DNA from: Escherichia phage PHB12
Reading direction: 5' to 3' (one strand)
Length of the DNA stretch: 64,000 nt
Sequence record: MK524178.1
Below are positions 3,971-60,275 of this stretch, in pieces (the first letter of the stretch is position 1; the number at the start of each line of letters is the position of its first letter). The notes beneath the pieces are model-generated. The model was not told the DNA's origin and did not search any database. It saw nothing but the letters and a program-made list of their open reading frames with translations. The translations under genes were made by a program, and so were the position numbers.

Positions 3971-4224
3971 TAAGTTGTACCGTTTTCAGTGATTTCACGG
4001 AAGATACCATAGATAGGCATTTCGTCACCGAGTTTTTCGTAAACGTAAACCACTTCGGTGTAGCATAAAAATTCGGTCCAGTTTTTCTGTACAACAACTA
4101 AATCAGGATTAAACAGAACATCTTCAAACTCATCGATGTTTGAATCAGTAGTTACGTTTTTAATGATTTGACGTTTCATAATATTCTCCTCTTGTTTTGA
4201 TAGGTCTATAGTATCATAGACCAT
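3952..4224 (-). CDS. hypothetical protein
   Basis: 90-aa ORF; promoter-like palindrome upstream near 4201-4240. Confidence 0.4.
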
Positions 4225-4236
4225 AGTTGTTGTACA

Positions 4237-5734: not shown

Positions 5735-5764
5735 ACTATACTCCATCCGTCCTTGGATGTACAA
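5735..5764 (-). promoter_or_regulatory. early promoter-like (TTGTAC / TATAGT)
   Basis: Minus strand TTGTACAtccaaggacggatggagTATAGT upstream of 5250..5705. Confidence 0.4.
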
Positions 5765-6292: not shown

Positions 6293-6322
6293 ATTATACT
6301 CCAACCATCCTTGGTTGTAAAC
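6293..6322 (-). promoter_or_regulatory. early promoter (GTTTAC / TATAAT)
   Basis: GTTTACAACCAAGGATGGTTGGAGTATAAT; near-identical copies at 46653-46682 and 47643-47671. Confidence 0.55.
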
Positions 6323-9385: not shown

Positions 9386-9435
9386 AATATTTTCCTCTGT
9401 CTTACGGACGTTAGGTCATTTAGCTGATAGGTCTT

Positions 9436-9464
9436 ATAATATCATGCCCTCAGGTAGTGTACAC
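9436..9464 (-). promoter_or_regulatory. early promoter-like (GTGTAC / TATTAT)
   Basis: gtGTACACtacctgagggcatgaTATTATaagacctatc upstream of 8639..9385. Confidence 0.4.
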
Positions 9465-10204: not shown

Positions 10205-10494
10205 CTAAAAATTCAACATTTTCAAATGAATGTTTTTGTTAGGTATTCGCGTTCTTGAAGTTCAGATTGACATGTCATGATAGACCTCCATTTAAAGATA
10301 AGCCTATCATAACACGAGAGGAGGGAATGTAAACTACTTTTTAAGCTTTCCTACTAAAGGTCCATCAGGACCAGGTTGTTCTAACATGAATAAGGATGCT
10401 TTAAAAAGCAATGTCAACCCTTTCACCATTCGATACCATGTCTCAAAGTCTTTTTCCTTGATTTCTAGTAAGAATTTCTCTTTAAATTTCTCTT

Positions 10495-11759: not shown

Positions 11760-11823
11760 TGTTCTCCTCTTGAGTAAGTAAGAATATCTTAACACAGTTT
11801 TTAGTGGTTGTAAACTGTAGAAA

Positions 11824-11853
11824 CAAAAAAAAAGGAATCCCGAAGGATTCCTT
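11824..11853 (-). terminator. strong rho-independent terminator after soc
   Basis: 9-bp stem AAGGAATCC/GGATTCCTT, loop UUCG, then nine U on minus strand. Confidence 0.7.
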
Positions 11854-16957: not shown

Positions 16958-16983
16958 TTTGTTCTCCAGTAGTTGATAGGTCT

Positions 16984-17012
16984 ATAATAACACAACTACT
17001 GGAGAAGTAAAC
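16984..17012 (-). promoter_or_regulatory. early promoter (GTTTAC / TATTAT) nested in 12-bp inverted repeat
   Basis: Arms ctccagtagttg (16964-16975) and caactactggag (16993-17004); downstream arm contains the RBS. Confidence 0.55.
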
Positions 17013-17387
17013 TTAAAAATGTAATTTAGATATATCTGCGTTGATTTCGTTTTGGTTTGCGTCATATGCAATTAAACGAACCGCTTTAGATGGGTCATTC
17101 AATGCATAGAAATGATGGAACATTGCTCGAACGATATCACCATTTACGAGTTTTACCTGGATAGGAGAACCTTTTTCGAGTTGGAAATGTTCATAAGCTT
17201 TGATGGTTCGCAGATAATCAAGTTTTTGATTTCCGGCTCCAACAATTTGTACGATACGTTTGCCCATGTTTTCCATACGAGATACAATAGTTTTAGGAGC
17301 AAGAATAACATAGGTTGCCAGCGGAGAATCTACTTCAACAGTTGTGTTTTCGGTGATTGCAGTAAAAATTGCTTGAGACATATTCAT
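17013..17387 (-). CDS. hypothetical protein
   Basis: 124-aa ORF with promoter at about 17417-17446. Confidence 0.45.
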   Translation of the reverse strand: MNMSQAIFTAITENTTVEVDSPLATYVILAPKTIVSRMENMGKRIVQIVGAGNQKLDYLRTIKAYEHFQLEKGSPIQVKLVNGDIVRAMFHHFYALNDPSKAVRLIAYDANQNEINADISKLHF

Positions 17388-17416: not shown

Positions 17417-17446
17417 ATCATATCATGCCTAGAGGAAGATGTAAAC
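17417..17446 (-). promoter_or_regulatory. early promoter-like (GTTTAC / TATGAT)
   Basis: gGTTTACatcttcctctaggcatgaTATGAT upstream of 17013..17387. Confidence 0.45.
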
Positions 17447-17452
17447 CCCGAA

Positions 17453-38020: not shown

Positions 38021-38175
38021 AAGTACCTCTTAGCTCAATTCATAGGTCTATTATATCATAATATTTAGAGACCTATCTTAAAGCACGAGATACTATCAAA
38101 GATACATAACTTTCATAAAGTTGTTGACTTAAAATTCACCAAACTTTTCTTCAGTTATACTGATTCGAGTTAATT

Positions 38176-40169: not shown

Positions 40170-40335
40170 TTTGTTTTCCTCTATAGCAGTTGGTTTAATC
40201 TTAACACATCTATCGAGGATGTAAACTGTTTTATGAAAAATATTTTTGATTTGAGAGGGGCACAAGGAGATAGTGAAGTGAAGATTCCAATGGATTATAT
40301 TAGAAATGAGATAAAGAAGACCAGGCGGCACCTGG

Positions 40336-46652: not shown

Positions 46653-46682
46653 ATTATACTCCAACCATCCTTGGTTGTAAAC
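46653..46682 (-). promoter_or_regulatory. early promoter (copy of the 6293 element)
   Basis: Same ~45-bp sequence gttaagatagaaagattatactccaaccatccttggttgtaaactg. Confidence 0.55.
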
Positions 46683-47642: not shown

Positions 47643-47671
47643 ATTATACTCCAACCATCCTTGGTTGTACA
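47643..47671 (-). promoter_or_regulatory. early promoter (variant copy, -35 TGTACA)
   Basis: ttattatactccaaccatccttggttgtacatc upstream of 46687..47616. Confidence 0.45.
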
Positions 47672-48729: not shown

Positions 48730-49257
48730 TTATGCGTGAACCGTCTTTAAACGTTCTTCAAATTTCCGAAGAGTACTAATACGTTCTGCTTTCTGTTTTG
48801 TATAGTTTGCAATACGTTCTGAAGTGAGAGCGTATCGTTCGTTTACTGTTTCTTTCATGAAGTCAGGGATTTCACGAGAAGCTTTAATTTCATCAAACTT
48901 ATCGAGTACTGCCTGGTCTTCAGCGATTAAATTTTCGTACATCTCGATATCTTTCTTGATAAACTCGATATCTTCCTGGGTTACTTTGGATAAACGAGAT
49001 GCTTTATCCTTTTTGTACTGCTCGTTAGTTTCACGAGACCAGAATAATGTACGTTTTTTGTTAGTGTTTTTGTAGACTTCCACAATTCCAACTGAATCGA
49101 TGATAGCAATCCAATTCCAGTGAGATTTGAAAATCTGACCTCCGTCCACGGTAATCTCGTTACCATAAGCAACGTCATTAAAGAACTTGCTTTGTGCTTC
49201 AGATTTAAATTTACCGTCGTTATAATTTACCAGGTTGAAAATATCTTTAGCGTTCAT
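48730..49257 (-). CDS. hypothetical protein
   Basis: 175 aa; RBS GGAGG; promoter upstream. Confidence 0.45.
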   Translation of the reverse strand: MNAKDIFNLVNYNDGKFKSEAQSKFFNDVAYGNEITVDGGQIFKSHWNWIAIIDSVGIVEVYKNTNKKRTLFWSRETNEQYKKDKASRLSKVTQEDIEFIKKDIEMYENLIAEDQAVLDKFDEIKASREIPDFMKETVNERYALTSERIANYTKQKAERISTLRKFEERLKTVHA

Positions 49258-49284
49258 GTTTTACCTCCAGTAGTTGATAGGTCT

Positions 49285-49313
49285 ATAATAACATAACCAT
49301 AGACCTTGTAAAC
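49285..49313 (-). promoter_or_regulatory. early promoter (GTTTAC / TATTAT) with ATAGACC palindrome around -10
   Basis: GTTTACaaggtctatggttatgtTATTATagacctatc; inverted repeat AGGTCTAT / ATAGACCT at 49279-49306. Confidence 0.55.
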
Positions 49314-49315
49314 AA

Positions 49316-49657
49316 CTAAAAGAAACTTTTTTCGGTATTTTTTCCACTGAACCAAGCGGATTGGGTAGTATTTTTCCGTTGGTGTTCGATACGAATGCGA
49401 TATTCATTCCTGATGGCGCAGAGTTCACCTCGGAAGTCGCCTGCCAACTTTACCTGCTTTCGGTCTAGATTTATTAAGGCCTGAGTCTTCGCGGCCAAGA
49501 GCAGTCTCTTGTAGTCTCCTTCTTCACAATCGGTTTTATAAACTCTATTGGTATATCCGTTGATAACTTCTTTATCATAGTCCTCGACGGATTGTTTCAT
49601 AGCTTTGGAAAAAGTCTGACCTGCGTTATAAAGATTGTAAATAAATTGTTCAAACAT
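49316..49657 (-). CDS. hypothetical protein
   Basis: 113-aa ORF. Confidence 0.4.
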   Translation of the reverse strand: MFEQFIYNLYNAGQTFSKAMKQSVEDYDKEVINGYTNRVYKTDCEEGDYKRLLLAAKTQALINLDRKQVKLAGDFRGELCAIRNEYRIRIEHQRKNTTQSAWFSGKNTEKSFF

Positions 49658-50648: not shown

Positions 50649-50686
50649 TTTATTCTCCAATTTACTCATTTCGTTTCGATAGGTCT

Positions 50687-50715
50687 ATAATAACATGTTT
50701 AAAGCAAAAGTAAAC
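50687..50715 (-). promoter_or_regulatory. early promoter (GTTTAC / TATTAT)
   Basis: GTTTACttttgctttaaacatgtTATTATagacctatc upstream of the P-loop ATPase gene. Confidence 0.55.
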
Positions 50716-50717
50716 AA

Positions 50718-50936
50718 TTATTTGCGACGAGATTTTTTGGTAAGAGGTTGAAAGAACACTGCTTTACCTGCAGGAGTCAAAGTAACTCGTAATGCATTAC
50801 CGATTCCCAAGGATGCTTTAACAAGACCTTTAGATTTCAGTTCACCGAATGCTTGACGTTGGTCTGCATCACGAGTGTTAACCATAAGACCTTTATCACC
50901 AGCTTCACGAATCATTTCTAACATTTTGGTTTTCAT
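50718..50936 (-). CDS. small hypothetical protein
   Basis: Start at MKTKMLEMIREAG after GAGGAG. Confidence 0.35.
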   Translation of the reverse strand: MKTKMLEMIREAGDKGLMVNTRDADQRQAFGELKSKGLVKASLGIGNALRVTLTPAGKAVFFQPLTKKSRRK

Positions 50937-50964
50937 TTTGTTCTCCTCTTGTTTTGATAGGTCT

Positions 50965-50993
50965 ATAATAACATATCCTAAAAGCATGTACAC
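50965..50993 (-). promoter_or_regulatory. early promoter-like (GTGTAC / TATTAT)
   Basis: GTGTACatgcttttaggatatgtTATTATagacctatc. Confidence 0.45.
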
Positions 50994-53779: not shown

Positions 53780-53806
53780 AACGTTCTCCTCTAGTAAGTA
53801 AGGTCT

Positions 53807-53835
53807 ACTATAACACAACCTGAGGAGAAGTAAAC
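53807..53835 (-). promoter_or_regulatory. early promoter (GTTTAC / TATAGT) flanked by CTCCTC/GAGGAG repeat
   Basis: GTTTACttctcctcaggttgtgtTATAGT; 6-bp arms at about 53786-53791 and 53822-53827. Confidence 0.5.
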
Positions 53836-53845
53836 TGCTAAATGC

Positions 53846-53874
53846 AAAAAAAGCCCCAACCTTTCGGAAGGGGC
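53846..53874 (-). terminator. rho-independent terminator, repeat copy 1
   Basis: aaaaaaaGCCCCaaCCtttcGGaaGGGGC on plus; U-run on minus strand after hairpin. Confidence 0.65.
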
Positions 53875-58032: not shown

Positions 58033-58060
58033 TTTGATTTCTCCTCTAGTTGACAGGTCT

Positions 58061-58089
58061 ATAGTAACACAACTAGAGGAGAAGTAAAC
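58061..58089 (-). promoter_or_regulatory. early promoter for regB (GTTTAC / TACTAT) nested in 12-bp inverted repeat
   Basis: Arms ctcctctagttg (58041-58052) and caactagaggag (58070-58081); downstream arm holds the RBS GAGGAG. Confidence 0.55.
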
Positions 58090-60002: not shown

Positions 60003-60243
60003 TTAGTTTCTCTTTTAGGTTGGGCTGTTCCGTGGCACATGAATTGTCCATTTCTGTATTTACCCATTACCGCACTTGGGCTCGACCTTATTACAGGTTG
60101 GCGGGAATCCCTCATAGAATCATGAGGTCCAGGTTGTTCCCATGTTATTTGAATGTAAATATTTTTGCCTTAATACTTATACCAGTGTGGCTTCATTAAA
60201 ATTTTTTCATCGAGTCATTTTACCTCTCCAAGTAATTATGAAT

Positions 60244-60273
60244 ATACTATCACAATTTTAGGAGAAAGTAAAC
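60244..60273 (-). promoter_or_regulatory. early promoter-like element heading a ~250-nt untranslated leader
   Basis: GTTTACtttctcctaaaattgtgATAGTAT; next sizeable ORF starts at 60002. Confidence 0.45.
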
Positions 60274-60275
60274 TG

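Follow-up and report, generated by a model that had tools for sequence, protein, structure and literature searches.

Early promoters of T4-type phages (Pe) are the closest described counterparts of the element analyzed here. Nolan et al. (2006) predicted 58 such promoters in RB69, noted a preference for C at positions -3 to -1, and annotated the AGACC promoters of that phage as '1 bp del'. Like the Pe promoters, the sites described below lie before early genes, carry GTTTAC as the -35 and a TAnnnT -10 with TGn, and have an upstream region rich in A/T. The published model ends at the start site, and the TC(AAC) at +2 to +6, the link between AGACC and the '1 bp del', and the boxes preferred in different lineages are not discussed there. 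T4 early promoters have additional consensus regions that are thought to optimise the interaction with RNA polymerase, and they are grouped by strength with T7 A1 and lambda PL (Hinton 2010). The sequences CAGCC-ATCGAG of T7 A1 (annotated start 498), GAGCAC-ATCAGC of lambda PL and AGACCT-ATCAAC of our sites all display an A start followed by TC and a C-rich stretch before it, but the resemblance concerns three to five bases only and implies no shared ancestry.

Two other systems are similar in architecture. The promoter-early stem-loop (PeSL) elements (Arbiol 2010; Comeau 2014) are, like the sites studied here, compact cassettes of an early promoter, a stem-loop and a Shine-Dalgarno sequence (SD) in plastic genome regions, and crossover between their copies deletes or exchanges genes, as at the L015 junction and beside promoter 49285 in RB69 (see below). 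However, the PeSL stem-loop is described upstream of the -35 and with a terminator role, whereas the arms of the hairpins in our sequence flank the -10. No T run follows the 3' arm of these hairpins, and separate terminator-like hairpins are located upstream of only a few promoters. In the hairpin-gated T4 genes e, soc, 49, I-TevI and segB, a promoter lies in the 5' part of the hairpin and the SD in the 3' arm, as at some of our sites, so that long transcripts fold while transcripts from the internal promoter cannot. A review assigns all known T4 genes of this hairpin-gated kind to the late genes, with late promoters (TATAAATA). In contrast, the internal promoter of the hairpins described here is of the early sigma70 type, and only some of the hairpins include the SD, which the one at 49285 does not. 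Since the known cases in the review are all late genes, the early-promoter version may be under-described, although we do not claim that it is new.

The DNA analyzed here, referred to as the window, is a stretch of 64,000 nucleotides from Escherichia phage PHB12 (record MK524178.1). It represents an RB69-like T4-type coliphage of the genus Mosigvirus; over 48-52 kb, its identity is 98.8% with phage SF and 96.8% with RB69. It contains the early region, from cef/motB to gene 43, gene 55, nrdC, tk, and regB to denV. The positions of the features are summarized in Table 1. Based on the results below, we consider it established that the sites are T4-type promoters with a box at a fixed place from -6 to +3, that the core of the box is found across the promoter class and across genera, that the copies recombine, and that spacer and leader co-vary.

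Table 1. Positions of promoter elements, hairpins and related features in the window.
Feature	Position	Strand	Remarks
Start box AGACCTATC of the nrdC.8-homolog promoter, -6 to +3	49276..49284	-	predicted +1 is the A at 49278; the RB69 Pe:53683 model also ends there
Extended -10, TGT + TATTAT (hexamer 49285-49290), nrdC.8-homolog promoter	49285..49293	-	
-35 GTTTAC (T4-type), nrdC.8-homolog promoter	49308..49313	-	17 nt from the -10; stop of the upstream ORF ends 2 nt before
Inverted repeat AGGTCTAT (49299-49306, spacer) / ATAGACCT (49279-49286, -8 to -1)	49279..49306	-	perfect 8 bp; hairpin with the -10 in the loop; z -2.66
SD GGAG (49265-49268) and ATG (49255-49257) of the nrdC.8 homolog	49255..49268	-	175 aa, ORF 48730-49257
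Exact 18-mer TGTTATTATAGACCTATC, nrdC.10-homolog promoter	50678..50695	-	no hairpin; RB69 Pe:55018
Exact 18-mer, RB69ORF102c-homolog promoter	50956..50973	-	no hairpin; RB69 Pe:55296
Segment between the nrdC.10 and ORF102c promoter copies	50697..50933	-	missing from related contig L015, junction inside the shared cassette
Exact 18-mer, RB69ORF040c-homolog promoter (upstream of dmd)	16975..16992	-	RB69 Pe:20537
SD-burying hairpin, ORF040c: 5' arm TTCTCCAGTAGTTG (16993-17006, spacer), 3' arm CAACTACTGGAGAA (16962-16975)	16962..17006	-	z -4.92, 0/200 shuffles
Stop codon of an upstream ORF beside the -35 (example)	stop 17013-17015, -35 17007-17012		
Variant TGTTACTATAGACCTGTC, regB promoter	58052..58069	-	
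SD-burying hairpin, regB promoter: TTCTCCTCTAGTTG / CAACTAGAGGAGAA	58039..58083	-	z -3.47
Variant TGATACTATAGACCTATC, cef promoter	4199..4216	-	N18 spacer; imperfect inverted copy, 4218-4225 with 4201-4208; RB69 Pe:6863
TATTAT-A-AGACCTATC, srd promoter	9426..9441	-	box offset by 1 nt; RB69 Pe:12088
TATAGT-AGACCTTAC, promoter of the 59-aa ORF near tk	53798..53812	-	
Gene 55 promoter, TGATATAAT-AGACCTATG, with upstream copy ATAGGTCTC (38068-38076, pairs with 38042-38050)	38041..38076	-	no GTTTAC -35; ortholog of T4 P55

Recurrence and composition of the start-site box

An initial annotation of the window had noticed a short string that recurs downstream of several -10 elements, and our search confirmed four exact copies as well as variants, at positions within 1-2 nt of those first given. 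The 18-mer GATAGGTCTATAATAACA (plus strand) matched exactly at 16975, 49276, 50678 and 50956 and with two to three mismatches at 4199, 38041 and 58052; looser matches, also in promoters, were located at 10297 and 39060. With up to three mismatches there were nine matches in the window as compared to 0.09 expected, a number equalled in none of 100 shuffles. For the 10-mer TAGACCTATC, ten matches with at most one mismatch were obtained against 2.76 expected in the window. The variants noted near 9425 and 53801 are both present, the former as AAGACCTATC with the box offset by 1 nt and the latter as AGACCTTAC.

All copies are located on the minus strand and each immediately adjoins a -10 hexamer; thus, the position relative to the -10 is absolutely constrained. 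On that strand they read GTTTAC/GTGTAC/ATGTAC, a spacer of N17 (once N18), TAYTAT and AGACCTATC, and an SD with an ATG follows 26-50 nt downstream of the motif, co-oriented with the coding strand. TGn is present next to the -10 at all nine motif copies, and a GTTTAC-like -35 was found 17-18 nt from a TAnnnT -10 at eight of the nine sites, the exception being gene 55. The genes behind the nine sites are cef, srd, RB69ORF040c, gene 55, nrdC.8, nrdC.10, RB69ORF102c, the 59-aa ORF near tk, and regB. As expected of Pe promoters, the sites of cef, srd, ORF040c, nrdC.8, nrdC.10, ORF102c and regB lie just upstream of these genes and in the same orientation. Moreover, the RB69 list of Nolan et al. (2006) includes orthologs of the motif sites, among them Pe:6863, 12088, 20537, 53683, 55018 and 55296. 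The element is thus real and non-random but largely ordinary: it is the start-site box of early promoters that had already been predicted in RB69 in 2006.

A generic sigma70 scan identified the promoters at 49285, 50687, 50965 and 53807 with TG, but its total of 24 promoter-like sites was not above the 25 in shuffled sequence, and it confirms individual sites rather than establishing them. An Rfam scan of the whole window matched no family.

To analyze the conservation of the class, we took 26 early promoters from the minus strand of the window and aligned them on their -10 hexamers. Past the hexamer, the conserved positions were A at -6 (18 of 26 promoters), C at -3 (16), C at -2 (15) and T at -1 (22), and on the transcribed side A at +1 (22), T at +2 (17), C at +3 (21) and A at +5 (18). 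Position +3 carries 1.54 bits, which is equal to the G of TGn (G-14), and the columns from -43 to -39 are A/T in 17-25 of the promoters, resembling an UP element. Thus, CCTATC(AAC) is common to the whole promoter class and occurs in most of the 26 promoters, while AGA at -6 to -4 marks a subclass. In line with the initial annotation, the element keeps a fixed place just downstream of the -10, and its conservation exceeds what recognition of the -35 and -10 by sigma70 accounts for.

The members of the AGACC subfamily share a pairwise identity of 0.77-1.0 over -17 to +3, as compared to 0.38 in the spacer, 0.40 over +4 to +9 and 0.27 in random sequence. Since the block is alike and the flanks are unrelated, the sites are not simple copies of one promoter. 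That possibility, duplication with no positional constraint, had been named at the outset as a test of the element, and it is at odds with the nine matches against 0.09 expected, the unrelated flanks and the fixed register. The AGACC box is tightly coupled to a spacer that is shorter by one base. Of 31 distinct AGACC promoters, 29 have N17, whereas N18 is the spacer in 71 of 83 promoters with other boxes (window, T4 sequences L003 and L113, and IMG/VR loci). In T4, the sole N17 promoter among 26, that of denV (65385), is also the sole AGACCTATCAAC promoter. We did not find this link between AGACC and N17 in the searchable literature.

The +1 is predicted to be the A of TAT, the seventh nucleotide after the -10, as judged from the promoter geometry, from the end of the Nolan model and from one orthologous start in T4. 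Pe:53683 has its left end (53634) at a distance of 21 nt from the nrdC.8 ATG, and this end coincides with the A predicted as +1 at window position 49278. A literature search found no genome-wide mapping of start sites for T4 or RB69, and the only experimental anchor is the T4 gene 55 promoter, P55, with a mapped start at 40180 that is tabulated as a middle promoter (Hinton 2010). In the T4 sequence, 40180 is the A at the seventh nucleotide after the -10 (TATAAT-AGATCT-A-TG). Since the mapped start is the A of TAT, AGACCTATC spans -6 to +3. The initial annotation had left open whether the element is a start-site context or a protein-binding site; the end of the Nolan model and the P55 start favor the former, and nothing indicates a separate site for a protein.

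The gene 55 site was not correctly described as an early promoter, since it is the ortholog of the T4 middle promoter P55; the two read TGATATAAT-AGACCT-A-TGAATTG in the window and TGATATAAT-AGATCT-A-TGAATTG in T4. It appears in neither the early nor the middle promoter list of RB69. A MotA box was defined as (a/t)(a/t)(a/t)TGCTTtA centred at -30 and 12+/-1 bp from the -10. Both in T4 (40180-40215, L003) and in the window, TGCTTTA is located 23 nt from TATAAT, too far for a canonical MotA box, and where the box is expected there is only a weak GTCT(T/C) match. In the window site (38041-38076), the upstream copy of the start box occupies the place expected for the MotA box. In T4 P55, the pairing with the upstream copy is kept through a G.U pair.

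Two further readings of the box were considered. A promoter on the plus strand was rejected as the primary reading: a perfect TATAAT is visible there because the -10 together with A(-6) creates a TAnnnTA symmetry, and neither a gene nor a -35 or TGn is found on that side. As a separate observation, at 49260-49289 (plus strand) a TTTACC stands 18 nt before the plus-strand TATAAT in the complement of the leader; divergent antisense initiation is conceivable, although neither a gene nor TGn nor any other feature speaks for it. The consensus for NAD capping is R at -1 and A at +1, and the box with T at -1 does not fit this context.

Distribution and recombination of the cassette

A 50-nt query with the 49285 cassette matched 438 phage records. 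An identical cassette is present in Mosigvirus, JS98-like phages carry it at up to 10-13 places per genome, T4 has it once, and it was also identified in Gaprivervirus and in T4-like phages of Serratia, Klebsiella and Yersinia. The majority form at the JS98-like loci is TACTAT-AGACCTATCAAC-TAC, and the form preferred in T4 is TACTAT-ACAACTATCAAC-TAC, with four exact copies plus the variant ACAACCATCGGA. A scan of IMG/VR for TATTATAGACCTATC gave 88 matches, of which only about 24 were T4-type promoters; the remainder were coding or chance matches, as must be expected when a 15-mer is searched in a database of this size.

Within a genome, paralogous promoters have the same box, whereas orthologous promoters differ between phages: those of nrdC.8 and nrdC.10 have ACAAC in T4 and AGACC in the window, and the reverse holds for denV. 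This is a pattern of concerted evolution. The same cassette precedes different genes in other phages, and two rearrangements have their ends in or just beside cassettes of the window. In the Mosigvirus contig L015, which lacks the ORF102c homolog, a single hybrid promoter remains, with the junction inside the two copies. In RB69, a gene replacement ends just upstream of the 49285 cassette. Because the flanks are unrelated and the L015 junction falls inside two copies, the box looks both selected and homogenised by recombination.

These data could also be taken to mean that the identity of the copies has no function and reflects recent duplication or gene conversion between portable cassettes, in the manner of the PeSL-mediated shuffling documented in RB49/phi1, PST/T4 and nt-1/KVP40. 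The deletion with a hybrid promoter at its junction, the gene replacement in RB69, the agreement of paralogs where orthologs differ, and the mobility of the cassette between genes are all consistent with this hypothesis. We nevertheless find it unlikely. The identical block of about 18 nt stands between unrelated flanks and is short for unselected tracts to stay intact, the core C-T-A(+1) and C(+3) is kept across subfamilies and genera even where the box differs, and the position of the box is fixed to the nucleotide. Conversion accounts for the homogeneity of the copies and not for the conserved core, and hence complements rather than replaces the explanation by recognition of the box by RNA polymerase given below.

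Several other observations on promoters and exchanged segments were made in the course of this analysis. In RB69, nrdC.9 (91 aa) takes the place of the 113-aa ORF (49316-49657) that lies upstream of the 49285 promoter in the window; the replaced segment is 49356-49654 in the window versus 1857-2089 in RB69 L090, and the two sequences are homologous again from about 70 nt before the -10. A second repeated promoter family with an identical 18-nt spacer, AACCAAGGATGGTTGGAG, before TATAAT was found at 47643-47670, 46653-46680 and 6293-6320 (variant at 5735-5762), preceding nrdC.4/5-like genes and motB.1. At 60207-60275, a complete early-promoter cassette of the IP-locus type with an SD-burying hairpin is followed only by ATGACTCGATGA (3 codons), which resembles the first codons of denV (ATGACTCGT...) and looks like a relic of recombination. 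An unrelated group of marine viral contigs in IMG/VR (L013, L031, L034, L036, L039, L053, L056, L064 and L073) shares TTGACTaaata..GGGTCTATTATAGACCTATCgttcatc, a sigma70-type promoter that has its -10 within a perfect palindrome of 15 bp. Next to it comes a conserved stretch with gacgcaagtaagtcgcggaacgga that looks non-coding. In the IMG/VR sequences L008 and L017 (166 kb and 115 kb), AGACCTATC after TATTAT is the 5' arm of a terminator-like hairpin, AGACCTATCgttaactcgGTAGGTCTttttttt.

Hairpins around the -10 element

We folded the segment from -30 to +26 of the 26 window promoters and calculated z-scores against shuffled sequences. The mean z was -1.82, with 11 of 26 promoters below -2, and the -10 was always in the loop. 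The corresponding values in T4 were -2.53 and 12 of 26, as compared to a mean z of -0.11 and 6 of 47 below -2 at control gene starts without an early promoter. The mean best stem between a spacer and its own leader was also stronger than that with the leaders of other promoters, both in the window (6.24 versus 4.78) and in T4 (6.65 versus 4.62), and this partner specificity was significant in each phage (permutation p <= 2e-4). In a MAFFT alignment of regB and paralogous cassettes, the arms were out of register between lineages, and therefore folds of individual sequences and the shuffled-partner test were used.

The hairpins display two geometries. In type A (16984, 58061, 4788, 61972, 40198, 17417 and 60244), the 5' arm begins immediately behind the -35 (..CTCC..) and the SD is part of the 3' arm; the loop of the hairpin at 16962..17006 holds the -10 and the AGACCTAT box. 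In type B, the middle of the spacer pairs with -8 to +3, as at 49285, 39069 (GATAGGAAG/CTTCCTATC), 53357 (GGTAGGA/TCCTACC), 15672 and 4208, and the SD is not within the 3' arm at any of these five. The regB orthologs of four lineages keep a hairpin whose arms differ: CTCCTCTAGTTG/CAACTAGAGGAG in the window, CCTCTTGACTG/CAGTTAAGAGG for the T4-type phages and, for the two remaining lineages, TCTCCTGTAAG/CTTACAGGAGA and TTTCTCCTCTTTAT/ATAAAGAGGAGAAA. The hairpin of the nrdC.8 promoter is of type B in the window and of type A in T4-type and JS98-like phages. Motif and hairpins are separable, since the promoters 50687 and 50965 have the motif without a hairpin and many hairpins occur without the motif.

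The three inverted copies that had been described as bracketing the -10 all exist, but only the hairpin at 49285 clearly exceeds the shuffled sequences, those at 38050 and 4208 being weak (z -1.53 and -1.46, as compared to -2.66). Such a palindrome is one case of a wider feature: in T4-type early promoters, the spacer pairs with the leader of the same promoter. The sequence of the upstream arm changes from one promoter to another together with that of its leader, as is typical of a structure and not of a single sequence-specific dimeric binder. The idea that the palindrome is a binding site is therefore not upheld; in addition, four of the nine copies are without such an inverted copy.

A related hypothesis takes the box itself as an operator, to which a phage-encoded factor would bind between the -10 and +3 and block initiation, for example the activity responsible for the early shut-off a few minutes into infection. 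The inverted copy would then create a stronger, dimeric site at some promoters, and the AGACC/N17 class would be a separately regulated subset. Neither AsiA nor ModA accounts for the T4 early shut-off, which is described as unknown, and the box is located where a repressor would occlude the polymerase. Furthermore, the box is present in the ortholog of the middle promoter P55, and it differs between phages with the same host polymerase (AGACC in RB69- and JS98-like phages, ACAAC in T4), as if it co-evolved with a phage factor. However, the inverted partner occurs at only three of the nine copies, and the remaining arms differ and co-vary with their own leaders, which suggests a structure. About two thirds of the window early promoters lack AGA and vary at -6 to -4, and these would need to be shut off too. 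No protein emerged as a candidate. We consider an operator very improbable, since the inverted arms do not form a conserved sequence and AGA is missing from most early promoters.

It could also be argued that the element acts as RNA, either because AUCAAC(UAC) is a common 5' leader with a role in mRNA stability or translation, or because the box serves as the 3' arm when read-through RNA folds into a hairpin. In line with this, ATCAAC at +1 to +6 is transcribed and conserved, CAAC(TAC) is within the SD-burying stem in several promoters, the box itself is the 3' arm at 49285, 38050 and 4208, and the P55 pairing in T4 is maintained by the G.U pair. On the other hand, no part of the subfamily is more invariant than AGACCT at -6 to -1, yet transcripts that start at the promoter do not contain it. 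Four of the motif copies lack a complementary partner, and the free variation of hairpin arms at other places does not extend to the box. An RNA role for the box thus appears highly unlikely. A comparison of mismatches in the stems, which could distinguish RNA from DNA, gave three G.U versus two A.C and was uninformative.

The location of the promoters may bear on the hairpins. The stop codon of the upstream ORF ends -1 to +5 nt from the -35 in 18 of the 26 promoters and overlaps the -35 in four. Since the stops adjoin the -35, the UP-like region is coding sequence, and core plus leader make up the whole intergenic space. This limited space may explain why the hairpins use spacer and leader. 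A terminating ribosome would be positioned at the foot of the 5' hairpin arm, and translational coupling is possible. The few promoters that do not abut an upstream stop are preceded by terminator-like GC hairpins with T runs (regions 17420-17450, 53835-53860 and 11790-11830), for example ggagacttcggtctcctttcggg before 17417 and ggggctttttttg before 53807. Hairpins that bracket the -10 of early promoters and often bury the ribosome-binding site were not found in the searchable literature, although Liebig and Rueger (1989) and Wilkens and Rueger (1994) could describe them.

Proposed role of the box and its implications

We consider it likely that TAGACCTATC represents the discriminator, the start site and the first transcribed bases of a T4-type sigma70 cassette that is read by the host RNA polymerase. 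The box at -6 to +3, continuing as ATCAAC to +6, would be recognized directly by the polymerase, and no extra protein would be needed. Judging from what is generally known of sigma70 promoters, it would set the start at the A located 7 nt downstream of the -10, in the context of a pyrimidine at -1 and A at +1, and would probably tune the behavior of the open complex and promoter escape. These promoters otherwise appear to grip the polymerase very tightly, with UP, -35, TGn and -10 all near consensus. All transcripts of the class would be given the common beginning AUC(AAC). Besides selection, recombination or gene conversion between cassettes would homogenise the copies within a lineage, and the same recombination would remove or swap genes between cassettes. 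T4, RB69-like and JS98-like phages share the E. coli RNA polymerase but differ at -5 to -3 (ACAAC versus AGACC), which indicates that the identity of AGA/CC is not dictated by the polymerase alone. It may be due to drift plus gene conversion, or to a phage-specific factor.

The inverted copy would be a separate feature that overlaps the box, and approximately 40% of the promoters appear to have a spacer complementary to their own discriminator or leader. We infer that the hairpins act in read-through RNA. RNA arriving from upstream could fold the hairpin with the -10 in the loop, while RNA started at the promoter would be without the 5' arm. Where the SD is in the 3' arm (type A), translation should then be limited to the early transcripts of the gene itself. 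The hairpin at 49285 does not cover the SD, so translational gating fails to explain this case.

Annotators could use the box to locate the beginning of early transcripts in RB69-, JS98- and T4-like phages and to recognize genes with a promoter of their own. The cassettes are short patches of homology for the loss and exchange of genes, which helps to explain the mosaic early regions of therapeutic T4-like phages. The link between AGACC and N17 and the early-promoter hairpins are the parts that merit the attention of specialists. If the hairpins act in RNA, they would stop the translation of early genes once their own promoters have been silenced, despite read-through from upstream. Such gating, if true, bears on the incompletely understood shut-off of early genes in T4.
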